A DNA stretch of 64,000 nt from Escherichia phage KIT01: sequence record AP019521.1; one strand, written 5' to 3'. The number at the start of each line of letters is the position of its first letter. Positions within the stretch are counted from its first letter, which is position 1. The notes beneath the pieces were generated by a model that was not told where the DNA came from, did no database searches, and worked only from the letters and a program-made list of their open reading frames with translations. Positions 1,316-20,356 of the stretch are shown here, piece by piece. The position numbers were made by a program, and so were the translations under genes.

Positions 1316-3298
1316 ATGGCTTTATTATCACCGGGCATTGAGCTCAAAGAAACGTCCGTACAGAGTACTGTCGTTCGTAACGCAACGGGTCGTGCAGCGC
1401 TGGTTGGTAAATTCCAGTGGGGCCCTGCTTTCCAGGTAACTCAGATTACTAATGAAGTTGAACTGGTCGACTTATTTGGAGGTCCTAATAACGAAGTTGC
1501 CGATTACTTCATGTCGGGTATGAACTTCCTCCAGTATGGTAACGACCTTCGTACTGTTCGTGTTGTTAACCGTGAATTCGCTAAAAACGCATCTCCGGTA
1601 GCAGGTAACGTCCAAACCACTATTACTACTGCAGGTTCTAACTATGCCGTAGGCGATAAAATTAATATCAAGCACAACCAAACTGTTGTTGAATCCGAAG
1701 GTCGTGTAACTTCAGTAGACACGGATGGTAAAATTCTATCAGTGTTTATTCCTACTGGCAAGATTATTTCTTATGCTCGTTCTCTTAACCAATATCCAGA
1801 CCTTGGGCCTGCATGGACTGCTGAAGTTACTTCAGCTTCTTCGGGTGTGTCCGGTACCATTACGGTCGGTAAAATCGTAACTGATTCCGGTATTCTATTG
1901 ACTGAAGCAGAGAACAGTGAAGAAGCTATTACCTCTCTGGAATTCCAAGCATCTCTTAAACAGTTTGGTATGCCTGGTGTAGTCGCTCTTTATCCTGGTG
2001 AAATTGGTAGTACTCTGGAAGTTGAAATTGTTTCTAAAGCGGCTTATGATGCGGGTTCTAATAAAATGTTGGATATTTATCCAAATGGCGGTACTCGTGC
2101 TTCTGTAGCTAAAGCGGTATTCAACTACGGTCCCCAGTCCGATAACCAGTATGCTATTATTGTTCGTCGTGATGGCGCAATCGTAGAATCCGTCGTACTT
2201 TCTACCAAAGAAGGCGAAAAAGACGTTTATGGTAATAACATTTATCTGGACGATTACTTTGCAAAAGGCACTTCTAATTACATCTATGCCACCTCGTTAA
2301 ACTGGCCTAAAGGCTTCAGTGGTATCATTAATCTGATGGGTGGTGTATCTGCTAACGACCAGGTTACTGCAGGTGATTTGATGCAGGGTTGGGATTTGTT
2401 TGCCGACCGTGAAGCATTACATATCAACCTTCTTATTGCAGGTGCTGTTGCCGGTGAAGGTGATGAAGTTGCTTCTACCGTCCAGAAACACGTTGTTAGT
2501 ATTGCTGATGAACGTCAGGATTGCTTGGCATTTATTTCTCCTCCTAAAGGCCTGTTGGTTAACGTTCCATTGACTCGTGCAGTAGATAATCTTATCGACT
2601 GGCGTACCGGTGCAGGTACTTTCGATACCAACAACATGAACATTAGCACCACTTATGCGGCAATTGACGGTAACTATAAATATCAGTATGACAAATATAA
2701 TGACGTAAACCGTTGGGTGCCTCTGGCCGCTGATATGGCTGGTTTGTGTGCGCGTACAGATGATGTTTCTCAGCCTTGGATGTCTCCGGCCGGTTATAAC
2801 CGTGGTCAGATTCTTAACGTTCTGAAATTGGCAATTGAACCTCGTCAAGCTCAACGTGACCGCATGTACCAAGAAGCTATTAACCCGGTTGTTGGTTTTG
2901 CTGGTGGCGATGGTTTCGTATTGTTTGGTGATAAGACTGCAACTAAAGTTCCATCTCCGATGGACCACATTAACGTTCGCCGTCTGTTCAACATGCTTAA
3001 GAAAAATATCGGTGATGCCTCTAAATATAAACTGTTTGAATTGAACGACAACTTCACTCGTTCAAGCTTCCGTATGGAAGTTTCTCAGTACTTAGATGGT
3101 ATTAAGGCACTTGGTGGGATTTATGAAGGACGTGTGGTTTGTGATACTACGGTGAACACCCCTGTGGTTATCGACCGTAACGAGTTTATTGCTAATATAT
3201 ACGTAAAACCTGCGAGATCGATAAACTACATCACGTTGAACTTCGTTGCAACGAGCACTGGTGCTGATTTTGATGAATTGATTGGACCTTTAGTATAA
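1316..3298 (+). CDS. 18: Tail sheath protein (gp18-like)
   Basis: 660-aa ORF; position after gene 17 and before tail tube gene; TATAAATA box about 30 nt upstream. Confidence 0.9.
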   Translation: MALLSPGIELKETSVQSTVVRNATGRAALVGKFQWGPAFQVTQITNEVELVDLFGGPNNEVADYFMSGMNFLQYGNDLRTVRVVNREFAKNASPVAGNVQTTITTAGSNYAVGDKINIKHNQTVVESEGRVTSVDTDGKILSVFIPTGKIISYARSLNQYPDLGPAWTAEVTSASSGVSGTITVGKIVTDSGILLTEAENSEEAITSLEFQASLKQFGMPGVVALYPGEIGSTLEVEIVSKAAYDAGSNKMLDIYPNGGTRASVAKAVFNYGPQSDNQYAIIVRRDGAIVESVVLSTKEGEKDVYGNNIYLDDYFAKGTSNYIYATSLNWPKGFSGIINLMGGVSANDQVTAGDLMQGWDLFADREALHINLLIAGAVAGEGDEVASTVQKHVVSIADERQDCLAFISPPKGLLVNVPLTRAVDNLIDWRTGAGTFDTNNMNISTTYAAIDGNYKYQYDKYNDVNRWVPLAADMAGLCARTDDVSQPWMSPAGYNRGQILNVLKLAIEPRQAQRDRMYQEAINPVVGFAGGDGFVLFGDKTATKVPSPMDHINVRRLFNMLKKNIGDASKYKLFELNDNFTRSSFRMEVSQYLDGIKALGGIYEGRVVCDTTVNTPVVIDRNEFIANIYVKPARSINYITLNFVATSTGADFDELIGPLV

Positions 3299-7800: not shown

Positions 7801-9360
7801 ATGAAAAAGAATGCATTAGTTCAAAAATGGTCCGCTCTGCTGGAAAACGAAGCCCTTCCTGAAATCGTGGGTGCTTCTAAACAAGCTATCATCGCTAAAA
7901 TTTTCGAAAACCAGGAGCAAGACATCCTGACTGCTCCGGAATACCGTGATGAAAAAATCTCTGAAGCATTTGGTTCTTTCCTGACCGAAGCTGAAATCGG
8001 TGGTGACCACGGTTATGATGCTACCAATATCGCAGCTGGCCAGACTTCTGGTGCTGTAACTCAGATTGGGCCGGCAGTAATGGGTATGGTTCGTCGTGCT
8101 ATTCCTCATCTGATTGCTTTTGATATTTGTGGTGTTCAGCCTCTGAATAACCCTACCGGCCAGGTATTTGCCCTTCGTGCAGTTTATGGTAAAGACCCTA
8201 TCGCTGCTGGCGCTAAAGAAGCTTTCCATCCGATGTATTCTCCGGACTCTATGTTCTCTGGTCAGGGTGCTGCTGAATCTTTCGAAGCACTGGCTGCAAG
8301 CAAAGTTCTGGAAGTTGGTAAAATTTATTCTCACTTCTTCGAAGCTACCGGTGCTGCACACTTCCAGGCTGTTGAAGCCGTAACCGTTGATGCTGCTGCT
8401 ACTGATGCCGCTAAACTGGATGTTGCTGTTACCGCTTTGATTGAAGCTGGTAAGTTGGCTGAATTGGCTGAAGGTATGGCTACTTCTATCGCTGAACTTC
8501 AGGAAGGCTTTAACGGTTCTACCGATAACCCGTGGAACGAAATGGGCTTCCGCATCGACAAACAAGTTATCGAAGCTAAATCCCGTCAGCTGAAAGCAAG
8601 CTACTCTATCGAACTGGCACAGGACCTTCGTGCAGTACACGGTATGGATGCAGATGCTGAACTGTCCGGTATCCTTGCTACCGAAATTATGCTCGAAATC
8701 AACCGTGAAGTTATCGATTGGATTAACTACTCTGCACAGGTTGGTAAATCTGGCCAGACTCAGACCGTTGGTTCTAAAGCTGGTGTGTTTGACTTCCAGG
8801 ACCCGATTGATATCCGTGGTGCTCGTTGGGCCGGTGAGAGCTTTAAAGCCCTTCTGTTCCAGATTGATAAAGAAGCAGCCGAAATCGCTCGTCAGACCGG
8901 TCGTGGTGCTGGTAACTTCATCATCGCTTCCCGTAACGTAGTTAACGTACTGGCTGCAGTTGATACTTCTGTAAGTTATGCAGCTCAAGGTCTGGGTCAA
9001 GGTTTCAACGTTGACACAACCAAAGCAGTATTTGCCGGTGTTCTTGGTGGTAAATATCGCGTTTACATCGACCAGTATGCACGTTCCGATTACTTCACCA
9101 TCGGTTATAAAGGCGCTAACGAAATGGACGCAGGTATCTACTACGCTCCGTACGTTGCACTGACCCCGCTGCGTGGTTCCGATCCGAAGAACTTCCAACC
9201 GGTAATGGGCTTCAAAACTCGTTACGGTATCGGTATCAACCCGTTCGCTGACCCGTCTGCACAGGCTCCTACCAAACGTATTCAGAGCGGTATGCCTGAC
9301 ATCGTTAACAGCCTTGGTCTGAATGGTTACTTCCGTCGCGTATATGTTAAAGGTATCTAA
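7801..9360 (+). CDS. 23: Major capsid protein (gp23-like)
   Basis: 519-aa ORF with gp23-type codon usage; followed by a strong stem-loop; paralogous to the downstream gp24-like ORF. Confidence 0.95.
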   Translation: MKKNALVQKWSALLENEALPEIVGASKQAIIAKIFENQEQDILTAPEYRDEKISEAFGSFLTEAEIGGDHGYDATNIAAGQTSGAVTQIGPAVMGMVRRAIPHLIAFDICGVQPLNNPTGQVFALRAVYGKDPIAAGAKEAFHPMYSPDSMFSGQGAAESFEALAASKVLEVGKIYSHFFEATGAAHFQAVEAVTVDAAATDAAKLDVAVTALIEAGKLAELAEGMATSIAELQEGFNGSTDNPWNEMGFRIDKQVIEAKSRQLKASYSIELAQDLRAVHGMDADAELSGILATEIMLEINREVIDWINYSAQVGKSGQTQTVGSKAGVFDFQDPIDIRGARWAGESFKALLFQIDKEAAEIARQTGRGAGNFIIASRNVVNVLAAVDTSVSYAAQGLGQGFNVDTTKAVFAGVLGGKYRVYIDQYARSDYFTIGYKGANEMDAGIYYAPYVALTPLRGSDPKNFQPVMGFKTRYGIGINPFADPSAQAPTKRIQSGMPDIVNSLGLNGYFRRVYVKGI

Positions 9361-9409: not shown

Positions 9410-9676
9410 CTATGCAATCTTAACTCGGCGGTTGATGATATCACGGAAGTCAATACGATTTTCTTGGATTTTCAGCCAGTTACCAGATTTGTCTTTGGTA
9501 TGGGTAGAGTATTCACCGTTCCACCAGAAGTCAGTTTCATAAGCCAGAGCTTCGTATTTCTTAACCAATGCATTAACTGCATTACCGTTAGGATTGGTAC
9601 CGAATTTTTCTACCAGAGCTTTGATGTCTTTGTCAAGGTTAGAAAGCGTGGTACGGATAAAGTTTAATTTGTTCAT
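9410..9676 (-). CDS. Hypothetical small protein between genes 23 and 24
   Basis: Minus-strand ORF; start taken at internal ATG preceded by GAGGAGA ribosome-binding site; early-type promoter upstream at about 9706-9735. Confidence 0.45.
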   Translation of the reverse strand: MNKLNFIRTTLSNLDKDIKALVEKFGTNPNGNAVNALVKKYEALAYETDFWWNGEYSTHTKDKSGNWLKIQENRIDFRDIINRRVKIA

Positions 9677-9705
9677 TTTTAATCTCCTCATGTTTTGATA
9701 GGTCT

Positions 9706-9778: not shown

Positions 9779-11059
9779 ATGGCTAAAATTAACGACCTTT
9801 TAAAAGAGTCGACCATTACTTCGAGTTCTTCGATTGGTCGTCCAAATTTAGTAGCTTTAACCAGAGCTACGACCAAACTTGTTTATACCGACCTTGTAGC
9901 TCAGCAGCGTACTAACCAACCTTTGGCTGCTCTATATGGTATCAAATATCTTACAGAAAAAGACGAATTATCTTTCCAGACGGGTGCTACTTATTCCGGC
10001 GCAGTATCCGCTAAAGACCGTGCCACTATCCCAGTTTTCACTGCAGGCGCTGTTTATGCTAAAGATGATTTGTTCCAATTTGAAAACGTAGTTTATAAAG
10101 CTTTGGTAGCAAGCCCATTTGCCGGTGCTACTGGTGATGAATACGAACAACTTCAAGAAGCTATTGTTAAGTTGACTATCCGTATTATGTCCGAAGCCGC
10201 ACTGACTGAGCGTTTTGAAGGTCCTCAAGAAGTAGATATCTCTGAAGCCAGATTCATCGTTAATAAATGGAACGCCCCGGTTAAATCACGTAAGTTGAAG
10301 AGTACTGTTACCGTAGAACTGGCTCAAGACCTCGAAGCAAATGGTTTCGATGCCCCTAATTTCTTGGAAGACCTCCTGGCTACTGAAATGGCTGATGAAA
10401 TCAACAAAGATATTCTTCAGTCCCTGGTTACGGTTTCCAAGCGTTATAAAGTTGAAGGTTTGTGTGATGATGGCTTAATTGACCTGAGTTATGCTAACTC
10501 ACCGGAAGCTTCTCGCAAGCTTTATGAATTGGTGTGTGAAATGGTTTCTCATATCCAGCGCGCAACCTCTTATACGGCAACTTATGTAGTAGCGAGTACT
10601 CGTGTAGCTGCTGTTCTGGCTGGTTCCGGATGGTTGAGACATACCCCACAGAACGACAAATATCTTTCTGCAAGTGCATACGGATTCCTGGAAAATGGTT
10701 TGCCTCTGTATTGTGATACCAACACGCCGATTGATTATGTTACTGTAGGTGTTAAAGAGGAATTTGGTGGGAAGGAAGCGGTAGGTTCTCTGTTCTATGC
10801 ACCGTATACCGAAGGCCTTGATTTGGCTGACCCTGAACATGTGGGTACATTTAAAGTGGTCGTTGACCCTGAAAGCCTGCAACCATCTATTGCATTAATG
10901 GTTCGTTATGCACTGGCTGCCAACCCTTATACGGTTACTGCTGATGATAAACAAGCCCGTATTATTGATGCGACTAATATGGATTTGATGGCGGGACGTT
11001 CTGATATGTCCGTATTGCTTGGTGTGAAACTTCCTAAAGTTTTGACTGAATTAAACTAA
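9779..11059 (+). CDS. 24: Capsid vertex protein (gp24-like, gp23 paralog)
   Basis: 426-aa ORF after gene 23 with TATAAATA box upstream; size and position match T4 gp24. Confidence 0.9.
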   Translation: MAKINDLLKESTITSSSSIGRPNLVALTRATTKLVYTDLVAQQRTNQPLAALYGIKYLTEKDELSFQTGATYSGAVSAKDRATIPVFTAGAVYAKDDLFQFENVVYKALVASPFAGATGDEYEQLQEAIVKLTIRIMSEAALTERFEGPQEVDISEARFIVNKWNAPVKSRKLKSTVTVELAQDLEANGFDAPNFLEDLLATEMADEINKDILQSLVTVSKRYKVEGLCDDGLIDLSYANSPEASRKLYELVCEMVSHIQRATSYTATYVVASTRVAAVLAGSGWLRHTPQNDKYLSASAYGFLENGLPLYCDTNTPIDYVTVGVKEEFGGKEAVGSLFYAPYTEGLDLADPEHVGTFKVVVDPESLQPSIALMVRYALAANPYTVTADDKQARIIDATNMDLMAGRSDMSVLLGVKLPKVLTELN

Positions 11060-18893: not shown

Positions 18894-19325
18894 TCATTTT
18901 TCACCTGCTTCAAATTTCCTGAGCTCCAACATATTCTTTAACGAGAACCCTCTAGCTTTGACTGCATCAAGTGCTGAACTACAAAAGTCCTGTAATAAAG
19001 CCCAATACTGAATTGATGTATCGATTTTAATTACACTAGAATCCGCAGCCATAACGGTCTTTAATTCAGACTTCTCATATTGGTCCATACAAACCTCATC
19101 ACCAGGCTCTCCACGTCCCGTGTAGAAATCTAATCGCTTCTTAAGTGAGGTCTTTTTCTGGATTTCTAATCTCATTATTTCTTTCTTGCAATTCGTATAC
19201 AGCCTTAGCCATTTGCTGTGCAGCAAAACGTTGTTCTGTACTTCATATTGTAAACGAGTTCCATCAATCTTTAAATCCTCGTCTAATGCATCTTGAAACG
19301 ACTCCAACTTGTACTCAATTTCCAT
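18894..19325 (-). CDS. uvsY: Recombination mediator UvsY
   Basis: 143 aa; matches remembered T4 UvsY (KLQYE..NNV.L.SKWL...EKSE.KTV...D.S.QYW..L.DFCS.ALDA.K.RGF). Confidence 0.85.
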   Translation of the reverse strand: MEIEYKLESFQDALDEDLKIDGTRLQYEVQNNVLLHSKWLRLYTNCKKEIMRLEIQKKTSLKKRLDFYTGRGEPGDEVCMDQYEKSELKTVMAADSSVIKIDTSIQYWALLQDFCSSALDAVKARGFSLKNMLELRKFEAGEK

Positions 19326-19941
19326 TGTATTTCCTCATAAAAGTAATAACCATACCATCATACCACACTTCCGGATATTTGTGTTCTATTGCTATAGTTC
19401 TAAACCTTCTAGCTTTAGGCATTCCAGATTCTACCCATAATGAATACAGTTCATCCTCTTTATCCCAAGGTATATTTTTACTTCGTCTGTTTGGCCTTGG
19501 TACATCTTTAGCCCAATGGACCTGATGCTTGAATTTTTCCTTCATTGTTTTAGATTGCCGTTCTCTACCTATCTTAGTAGAAGGATTTTTCTTTCCTAAC
19601 ATAGGATGAACTTCCATTAATTGCCCGCCGACACCGCCTTTAGCTATATTAACACAATTACTAAATTTAATTTTGGCTTCGCCAACTAAGAGTTCTTCAA
19701 ACTCAGCATTCAATTCTAGGGTAGGTTGAACGGACAGAATATGTTTTACAAATCTAGTATTTGGGTTTTTCTTGGCAGATTTTATAAAAATACCAGACCC
19801 TAAATAACTATTATTTAGAGAAGTGCTGGTGTGCTTACCAAAATAGACCCAGTAATTATTATCTGTAAATATTTCTGTCATATAACAATAATGTATTTTA
19901 TCTCTCATCGCATGTTTCCTGTGTAATAACCATAGGACCAT
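19315..19941 (-). CDS. Putative free-standing homing endonuclease (GIY-YIG-like, Seg family)
   Basis: 208 aa; N-terminal HYCYMTEIF...YWVYFGKHTS resembles a GIY-(10-13 aa)-YIG module; basic C-terminal half; occupies the uvsY-25 junction. True start may be the internal ATG with an AGGAAA ribosome-binding site (about 19908). Confidence 0.5.
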   Translation of the reverse strand: MVLWLLHRKHAMRDKIHYCYMTEIFTDNNYWVYFGKHTSTSLNNSYLGSGIFIKSAKKNPNTRFVKHILSVQPTLELNAEFEELLVGEAKIKFSNCVNIAKGGVGGQLMEVHPMLGKKNPSTKIGRERQSKTMKEKFKHQVHWAKDVPRPNRRSKNIPWDKEDELYSLWVESGMPKARRFRTIAIEHKYPEVWYDGMVITFMRKYNGN

Positions 19942-19966
19942 TATACACTATTCATTTGAACAGCAA

Positions 19967-20356
19967 TTAACCACTCTGTGAGAGCTGGATTCTAATTTGC
20001 TCTAATGTATCAGGGTCATCAACTATACTAAACTGAACCGTTACTATAATCGAGTTATCATCGTACACGGGTGTCACACCTACAGCTAGAGCAGAAATTC
20101 TAGGTTCGAAGTTCCGCACGGCGGAAACTATATTACGCTTAATGGTATCCGTGATTAATGGGGTGATATTCTCAAACAATTGGTTACTGATGTCACAACC
20201 AAATTCCGGCATAAAAGGGCGTGAACCTTTGCGAGTAGTAATAATGCCTAACAAACTATTTTTTACTGCACGAGCACCTGTAGCTTTAGCGACGTCTCTA
20301 TTCCAAGACGTCCTCATTTCAGGGTCTAAATCTGAATACATTTTATTGATATTCAT
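19967..20356 (-). CDS. 25: Baseplate wedge protein gp25 (lysozyme-like GPW/gp25 family)
   Basis: 129-aa ORF at the T4 gene 25 position, abutting gene 26. Confidence 0.85.
   Translation of the reverse strand: MNINKMYSDLDPEMRTSWNRDVAKATGARAVKNSLLGIITTRKGSRPFMPEFGCDISNQLFENITPLITDTIKRNIVSAVRNFEPRISALAVGVTPVYDDNSIIVTVQFSIVDDPDTLEQIRIQLSQSG

Follow-up and report, generated by a model that had tools for sequence, protein, structure and literature searches.

What is encoded between gene 25 and uvsY of Escherichia phage KIT01 (AP019521.1), and how can a gene be accommodated there next to the start of uvsY? In T4 the two genes are adjacent (NC_000866 annotation), as a first, sequence-only reading of the KIT01 DNA had stated, and a spacer of 76 nucleotides (nt) separates them. 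Within the 64,000 nt of KIT01 that we analysed (the window), an additional open reading frame (ORF) lies between them on the minus strand. Read from the second ATG, its product is identical to the KIT01 protein BBI57541.1, which was deposited as "hypothetical protein KIT01_193" without a function. We find it very probable that this gene encodes a free-standing homing endonuclease of the T-even Seg type, composed of a SegE-like GIY-YIG domain, a basic linker and a C-terminal helix-turn-helix, and that it is seated in the first codons of uvsY.

Assignment to the SegE-like GIY-YIG nucleases

In a BLASTP comparison the protein is 29% identical to T4 SegE over about 170 residues (E 2e-13). Both proteins have the pattern H(Y/F)xY...Y(F/I)GKH...L(N/D)(N/D)xYLGSG...E...N...GG(V/I)GG. 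An exhaustive HMMER search with a profile built from six close homologues retrieved 5027 proteins at E<=1e-3, and among 88 sampled profile relatives 34 contain PF19835 SegE_GIY-YIG, 33 PF01541 GIY-YIG and 46 NUMOD3. The alignment of these 88 sequences keeps Gly24, Tyr35, Gly37, Gly39, Glu71, Asn87 and Gly91 invariant and Tyr9, Tyr22, Ser38 and Gly92 conserved in at least 90%; Glu71 and Asn87 are invariant in the six close homologues as well. Comparison of the same alignment with I-TevI (PDB 1LN0) by hhalign gives a match of 93.7% probability (E 1.9e-7), in which Tyr9 is paired with Tyr6 of I-TevI, Tyr22 with Tyr17, Glu71 with Glu75 and Asn87 with Asn90. The sequence-only reading had seen the spacing of a GIY-YIG module in the N-terminus, and this observation holds. 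The motifs 'HYCY' and 'VYFG' are present 12 residues apart and align to Tyr6 and Tyr17 of I-TevI, while 'NCVNIAKGG' contains the equivalent of Asn90.

The predicted structure agrees with the sequence alignment. The catalytic domain is predicted to adopt the beta-beta-alpha-beta-alpha core fold of GIY-YIG nucleases, and its closest match is the catalytic domain of I-TevI, followed by other nucleases of this fold. A Foldseek search of BFVD structures lists T-even Seg-like endonucleases as top matches, down to E 1e-14. Sequence-profile searches of the PDB with the 6- and 88-sequence alignments did not find I-TevI and returned only a weak TRF2 Myb match, so that hhalign and the fold comparison were needed to establish this link. 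We also tried a SegG-like assignment. The hhalign comparison of the tight family with T4 SegG was not significant, and the family is therefore described as SegE-like and not SegG-like. Sequence and predicted fold together support that the protein belongs to the SegE-like branch of GIY-YIG nucleases; the Seg-type identity proposed earlier is thereby upheld by the SegE match, the profile relatives, the I-TevI alignment and the predicted fold.

Three observations speak against this assignment. First, the I-TevI helix that carries Arg27 and His31 is deleted: the hhalign alignment has a 9-residue gap over I-TevI residues 23-31, and no Arg can be aligned. Second, the Pfam scan gave no GIY-YIG match at E<=1 and only a sub-threshold match to Bro-N (E 0.006). 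Third, the nine closest profile relatives are likewise devoid of a significant match to a curated family. Beyond this, the scan of the endonuclease against NCBIfam returned nothing and that against PHROGs only a weak match to 'anti-repressor Ant' (E 0.07). Family profile searches, which the sequence-only reading had suggested as a check, thus do not place the protein by themselves. T4 SegE itself stays below the cut-off of PF01541 (21.6 vs 22.6 bits) and reaches PF19835 at 6e-9. The BLASTP alignment shows the same layout without Arg27 in T4 SegE, which PMC2988022 (Table 1) lists among the active enzymes. With the protein placed in the SegE-like branch, we count Arg27 as absent, as it is in this enzyme listed as active. 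Lys25 and His26 of the invariant GKH may stand in for the missing Arg27.

A basic C-terminal half with a predicted helix-turn-helix

The C-terminal half had been described as strongly basic, which is correct: residues 98-197 have an isoelectric point of 10.0 and contain 22 Lys and Arg against 12 Asp and Glu. The structure predicted for this half consists of one linker helix and a Myb-like three-helix bundle. The AlphaFold confidence score (predicted local distance difference test) falls to 66-76 in blocks 91-110 and 131-140, and these lower-confidence segments of the linker suggest flexibility. Neither NUMOD1 nor NUMOD3 is matched in the endonuclease by Pfam, in contrast to the 46 of 88 relatives that contain NUMOD3.

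The Bro-N and PHROGs matches bring up another identity, that of a Bro-N or antirepressor-type DNA-binding protein unrelated to nucleases. The Bro-N match covers amino acids (aa) 110-183 of the longest, 208-aa ORF with 17.6 bits against a cut-off of 25.6, and the PHROG match to Ant points in the same direction. Both matches are below threshold and restricted to the C-terminal half, for which an all-helical Myb-like bundle is predicted, and the N-terminal half has the GIY-YIG fold. We regard this identity as extremely unlikely.

Start codon and insertion point

The ORF listing contains a 208-aa ATG ORF at 19315..19941 on the minus strand, which the sequence-only reading had taken as the gene. 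The ORF, its neighbours and the 11-nt overlap with uvsY are real, but the start is probably at 19908, which gives a protein of 197 aa. The first ATG (19941-19939) falls partly within the -10 hexamer, TATAAT, of the promoter that is conserved in front of uvsY, and would be absent from a transcript of this promoter. It sits in the 58-nt intergenic sequence between 25 and uvsY, which is identical in endonuclease-less relatives. The second ATG and its AGGAAA ribosome-binding site align with the uvsY start of endonuclease-less relatives (QL01), and the gene calls of GenBank (BBI57541.1) and of the metagenome (P0001) are both 197 aa long. Because of the promoter overlap, the alignment to the uvsY start of relatives and these calls, the gene is taken as 19315..19908, with the second ATG as the most likely start codon. 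At its other end the gene overlaps uvsY by 11 nt (ATGGAAATTGA), and its stop codon TGA falls within uvsY codons 3-4. In a 177.7-kb metagenomic phage contig (L010, SRR33868202; region 2977-3000), a homologue is called from an internal ATG by which the 'IHYCY' strand is lost; an upstream in-frame GTG (VEKIHYCYMTE...) restores this strand.

Alignment with QL01 by MAFFT places the gap at 19324-19900. Homology covers the whole 58-nt spacer between 25 and uvsY and includes ATGAG at 19908-19904, with flanks that are about 97.6% identical over 4.2 kb. UvsY of the window starts with MEIEY and is two residues shorter than UvsY of QL01, which starts with MSKEIEY. The endonuclease of metagenomic contig L007 begins with MSKQDK... 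and keeps the first three uvsY codons. In a Karamvirus pair (VPA32 and Entb_43), the insert starts right after the uvsY ATG and ends in ...GAGGAAAGTGA GTG, a new ribosome-binding site and GTG start. In all three comparisons of a carrier with a non-carrier the insert begins within the first 1-3 uvsY codons, and because of this agreement we place the cassette inside these codons. The sequence-only reading rightly saw the gene between 25 and uvsY, although the insertion is in the first uvsY codons and not in the intergenic spacer.

This layout bears on expression. The promoter upstream of the gene agrees in position and spacing with T4 (AATGCTTCA, 13 nt, TATAAT) and with all other loci, and the arrangement TGCT(T/G)-N15-TATAAT is conserved and common to T4 PuvsY. 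We infer from what is known of T4 (PMC3016281) that the promoter has a MotA-type function and that the endonuclease is transcribed from this middle promoter of uvsY. A scan for sigma-70 promoters and terminators, which is blind to MotA-type promoters, found nothing beyond chance; the middle promoter is missing from it because it has no -35 element. The captured translation-initiation region is identical upstream of uvsY in the endonuclease-less phages QL01, IME281, LQ5, E33 and 005. The arrangement GAGGAAA-N4-6-ATG/GTG at the 3' end of the endonuclease gene is present in all homologous loci. As judged from these alignments, the cassette takes the promoter, ribosome-binding site and ATG of uvsY and returns a GAGGAAA ribosome-binding site and a start codon. 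The 11-nt overlap suggests that uvsY is translationally coupled to the endonuclease. In I-TevI and segB the ribosome-binding site is sequestered by RNA structure. RNA folding of both translation-initiation regions of the window revealed no structure beyond shuffled controls and no sequestration of the ribosome-binding sites. The features of the locus are collected in Table 1.

Table 1. Features of the 25-uvsY locus in the window (positions in the window; strand; remarks)
Feature	Position	Strand	Remarks
Homing endonuclease coding sequence, most likely extent	19315..19908	-	197 aa and stop; longest ORF reaches 19941
GIY-YIG catalytic domain (aa 1-97), SegE-like	19618..19908	-	Tyr9, Tyr22, Glu71, Asn87; I-TevI Arg27 helix deleted
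Basic linker (aa 98-147)	19468..19617	-	one helix, aa 112-125, in the AlphaFold model
Myb/GARP-like three-helix helix-turn-helix domain (aa 148-197)	19318..19467	-	predicted; presumed DNA-binding module
Insertion-specific DNA	19324..19903	-	about 577-580 nt relative to endonuclease-less Dhakaviruses; edges ambiguous by a few nt
uvsY-type middle promoter	19940..19966	-	MotA-box-like TTGCTGTTC (19965-19957), -10 TATAAT (19945-19940); directly after gene 25 stop
Captured uvsY translation-initiation region	19906..19920	-	AGGAAA (19920-19915), 6 nt, ATG (19908-19906); now endonuclease start
Replacement uvsY start signals in endonuclease 3' end	19323..19336	-	GAGGAAA (19336-19330), ATG (19325-19323)
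Recoded uvsY 5' end	19290..19323	-	10 changes relative to QL01 within 34 nt; a single one in the next 100 nt or so
12-nt direct repeat TATGGTTATTAC, upstream copy	19923..19934	-	in uvsY 5' untranslated region
12-nt direct repeat TATGGTTATTAC, downstream copy	19343..19354	-	in endonuclease 3' end; encodes conserved G-M-V-I-T
uvsY (143 aa), downstream host gene	18894..19325	-	start displaced; Pfam UvsY 4e-53, PHROG 231
Gene 25 (baseplate wedge), upstream host gene	19967..20356	-	Pfam GPW_gp25 7e-16, PHROG 261

Distribution among related phages

A megablast search with the locus returned 588 related phage records, mostly Dhakavirus and other Tevenvirinae, and the insert of about 577 nt is absent from all of them; the INPHARED copy that was searched excludes the KIT01 genome, hence no record spans the insert. 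Of 697 phage records with a match to the 5' end of uvsY, 3 contain the endonuclease and 694 do not. Presence of the ORF at this position in all relatives with a conserved non-nuclease function, which the sequence-only reading had named as speaking against a homing endonuclease, is thus not observed. By tblastn at more than 50% identity only three records are found, Klebsiella phage VPA32 and Enterobacter phage Ent31, both Karamvirus, and Salmonella phage GRNsp7, a Tequatrovirus. All three have the endonuclease between 25 and uvsY, and in each it again overlaps uvsY by 11 nt. A search of 5.8 billion proteins yielded 5 clusters of the family. Its additions are a 99% twin and, at 74% and 65% identity, two metagenomic lineages; these genes, too, are located between 25 and uvsY. 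Taken over the Karamvirus, Tequatrovirus and two metagenomic lineages, homologues at this position are 55-75% identical to the window protein; the IMG/VR scan found one distant relative only, at 34%. The family is rare, locus-specific and patchy. Decayed endonuclease copies were not found at empty sites, where the spacer is only 58-76 nt long. A paralogue was not found in the window by tblastn; the weak match at 10127-10195 runs antisense to gene 24 and was discarded.

Carrier and non-carrier pairs

In the Karamvirus pair, Klebsiella phage VPA32 has the gene and Enterobacter phage Entb_43 does not. Leaving aside the insert and six adjacent substitutions, their sequences are 99.8% identical over 4.2 kb: in addition to the 577-nt insert they differ by 9 substitutions in 4.2 kb, and 6 of the 9 are located in uvsY nt 6-24, adjoining the insert. 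GRNsp7 and T4 (Tequatrovirus) have 92 mismatches over the aligned flanks, 6 of them in uvsY nt 7-21. Between the window and QL01 (Dhakavirus) there are 103 mismatches in 4.2 kb, including 10 third-codon-position changes at 19290-19323. In these three independent comparisons the recoding spans the first 7-12 uvsY codons, and the recoded 5' end in the window is a candidate for one half of the homing site or for a co-conversion tract. The uvsY variant of GRNsp7 occurs in none of about 480 endonuclease-less Tequatrovirus records, the best of which is 93% identical. Presence and absence of the gene in near-isogenic genomes and the recoded tract at the junction lend indirect support to the mobility that the sequence-only reading had attributed to such genes. 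At this locus Erwinia phage COW86c and Enterobacter phage EnC15 show the same picture as Entb_43.

The 3' end of uvsY is also variable. In the window this end (18894-18999; ...DAVKARGFSLKNMLELRKFEAGEK) is of the IME281/005 allele and not of the QL01/LQ5/E33 allele, with 27 mismatches to QL01 within 18900-18999. A different Seg-like gene (31% identity; L002 IME281 2007-2696) lies on the far side of uvsY in IME281, IME08, IME341 and FB and overlaps the uvsY stop by 11 nt; the window is without this second gene. The allele patterns thus make the 5' end and the 3' end of uvsY mosaic patches, each of which adjoins an insertion site of an endonuclease.

Proposed homing and its alternatives

The cassette has no promoter of its own and, as we propose, is transcribed and translated from the middle promoter, ribosome-binding site and ATG of uvsY. 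Its 3' end supplies a ribosome-binding site and start codon, so that uvsY would still be made, probably by coupling across the 11-nt overlap. For the further steps the homing of SegA-G and I-TevI serves as model (PMC2988022). By analogy, the enzyme would cut the genome of an endonuclease-less relative in a mixed infection, at or near the intact 25-uvsY junction or the uvsY start. Repair of the break by recombination, with the endonuclease-bearing genome as template, would bring the gene and a few tens of nt of adjoining uvsY into the recipient. Carriers would be immune, since the insert splits the site and the uvsY half is recoded. VPA32 and Entb_43, as a near-isogenic pair, are suited to measuring homing and very short co-conversion tracts.

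Some findings on cleavage site, tract and history weigh on the other side. Seg enzymes can cut hundreds of bp away from their insertion site. The recoded variants of Dhakavirus are mostly also present in the endonuclease-less phages LQ5, E33 and 005, and a tract that is unique to carriers is thus rejected for Dhakavirus, while it holds for Tequatrovirus and the Karamvirus pair. We therefore interpret the Dhakavirus tract as the mark of a recombination junction that is not carrier-specific. In addition, the nucleotide divergence of the endonuclease gene (64-72%) parallels that of gp25 and uvsY (60-74%), and its grouping, Dhaka-like versus Karam/Tequatro, is the same as theirs. Long residence with vertical descent accounts for this parallel divergence at least as well as frequent transfer between genera, if not better. 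The parallel argues for long residence in each lineage, or for homing mainly among close relatives, and not for frequent jumps between genera. The way in which mismatches are distributed between the window and contig L015, its 99% twin, carries no information on a recent transfer.

Between six lineages the proportion of nonsynonymous differences (pN) is 0.17-0.36 and that of synonymous differences (pS) 0.65-0.83, with synonymous sites saturated, and the ratio of the corresponding rates (dN/dS) between the window and its twin is 0.11. Since pN is far below pS and dN/dS is this low, the gene is kept by selection. Purifying selection of this strength together with divergence congruent to the flanks is unusual for a selfish element that is expected to decay. 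It would fit a domesticated or dead DNA-binding protein derived from a GIY-YIG nuclease that regulates uvsY or the origin-type promoter and does not home. I-TevI represses its own promoter, and the gene of the window is located directly behind a promoter that in T4 doubles as oriF; the missing Arg27 helix and the lack of a Pfam GIY-YIG match would be explained as well. However, the Tyr, Tyr, Glu and Asn residues vary little, if at all, in the family and in the 88 distant relatives, and T4 SegE is listed as active without this Arg (PMC2988022). A useful regulator would not be absent from >99% of relatives, and the near-isogenic pair with and without the gene, together with its recoded junction, bears the signature of gene conversion. 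We consider such a regulator unlikely.

The same history can be read in terms of an active nuclease that is selected mainly for competition between phages, by marker exclusion or degradation of co-infecting relatives, or for local recombination or amplification. Self-copying would then be rare and the patchiness would reflect ancient descent with many losses. The endonuclease tree that parallels the host-gene tree and the saturation of synonymous sites between lineages are in line with this, as is the rarity of the family, with its 5 clusters in 5.8 billion proteins and one distant IMG/VR locus. A benefit of SegB other than homing is reported (PMC13096335). Loss of the gene, however, would require for VPA32 and Entb_43 an exact 577-nt deletion plus six point changes within the adjacent 19 nt, and no decayed copies exist at the empty sites. 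We regard a nuclease selected mainly for such roles as distinctly unlikely, and we retain a homing endonuclease as the explanation of the locus.

A route for loss is nevertheless visible in the sequence. The 12-nt direct repeat is exact and its two copies are 580 nt apart (11/12 positions match in the twin L015). Recombination between the copies would delete the endonuclease and leave the promoter, the ribosome-binding site and an ATG-uvsY in working order; this deletion product was not found in the phage collection. The 5' untranslated region of Dhakavirus uvsY resembles endonuclease 3' ends better than 1000 shuffles. Repeat and likeness could be due to chance, to gene conversion or to a scar of earlier occupation. 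In the last case the 5' untranslated region of endonuclease-less Dhakaviruses could be the scar of a former occupant and record repeated cycles of gain and loss.

Possible relation to an origin of replication

The T4 record annotates an origin, oriF (ori uvsY), in the 25-uvsY spacer (T4 115321, L006 3322), with the uvsY transcript as primer. The equivalent region of the window is 19880-19966. Counted from the equivalent promoter, the insert starts about 35 nt downstream, at the place of the A+T-rich unwinding element of T4. Over the first 100 nt behind the -10 hexamer the A+T content is 71% in the window versus 64% in QL01. If Dhakaviruses use oriF, the unwinding element might have been replaced by the 5' end of the endonuclease gene, which is rich in A+T (about 70%), and the endonuclease mRNA might be the origin primer, a proposal that we put forward as doubtful. 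Were it true, the firing of the origin would be coupled to the expression of both the endonuclease and the recombination mediator that homing requires.

Comparison with known systems

The best characterised sequence relative is T4 SegE. Both proteins have the catalytic layout Y-x-Y ... YxGKH ... (D/N)xYxGSG ... E ... NxxxGGxGG without the Arg27 helix, and they are similar in size (205 aa for SegE, 197 aa here). Both genes are free-standing, co-oriented with their neighbours and adjoin a recombination gene, with SegE targeting uvsW (PMC2988022, Table 1). The loci differ, inh|uvsW for segE and 25|uvsY here, and the C-terminal halves do not align, that of the window protein having a predicted Myb-like helix-turn-helix. 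SegE passes PF19835 (6e-9), whereas the window protein stays below every Pfam threshold. In contrast to segE, which has its own upstream promoter (PMC2988022), the gene of the window appears to use the captured promoter, ribosome-binding site and ATG of uvsY. With I-TevI (T4 td, PDB 1LN0) the protein has in common the alignable Tyr, Tyr, Glu and Asn and the succession of nuclease, flexible linker and C-terminal helix-turn-helix, which is predicted for the window protein. Unlike I-TevI it is not intron-encoded, it is without the Arg27/His31 helix, and zinc finger, NUMOD1 and I-TevI_DNA-bd are not matched.

The genes at 25|uvsY in vB_KpnM_VPA32 (WJJ59169.1, 'intron-associated endonuclease'), vB_Ent31 (WOF01333.1, 'endonuclease') and GRNsp7 (USW07275.1, 'hypothetical protein') form an orthologous family with that of the window. 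Their products are 55-57% identical to it over the full length, and they have the same position, the same 11-nt overlap, a captured uvsY start and a donated GAGGAAA ribosome-binding site. They belong to other genera, and the junction shifts by 0-9 nt, being located after ATG in Karamvirus and after ATGAG in the window. The gene of the Dhakaviruses IME281, IME08, IME341 and FB (YP_010094232.1, 'putative endonuclease') is a paralogue of 31% identity that also abuts uvsY with an 11-nt overlap. In contrast to the gene described here it lies on the opposite side of uvsY, between uvsY and uvsY.-2, and it is absent from the window.

In literature searches we came upon no account of an endonuclease between 25 and uvsY, nor does the list of T4 insertion sites in PMC2988022 include this position. 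The gene is a fresh example of a known Seg-type nuclease and none of the named T4 segA-G; the current understanding of homing endonucleases is unchanged by it. Its value lies elsewhere. KIT01_193 and the GRNsp7 gene, both annotated as 'hypothetical protein', gain a predicted function, and a SegE-like sub-clade becomes apparent that is missed by curated models. The locus would also provide a compact example of a selfish nuclease gene that enters an essential operon without harm by start capture and replacement. In T4, segA targets uvsX, segE uvsW and segG gene 32 (PMC2988022). Together with these three, a homing endonuclease at uvsY would give each main T4-type recombination gene its own Seg endonuclease.

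A further ORF of the window is a side observation. It encodes 93 aa at 9410-9691 on the minus strand, opposite to its neighbours gene 23 (7801-9360) and gene 24 (9779-11059), between which it is located; we take this position and orientation to be those of T4 segD.

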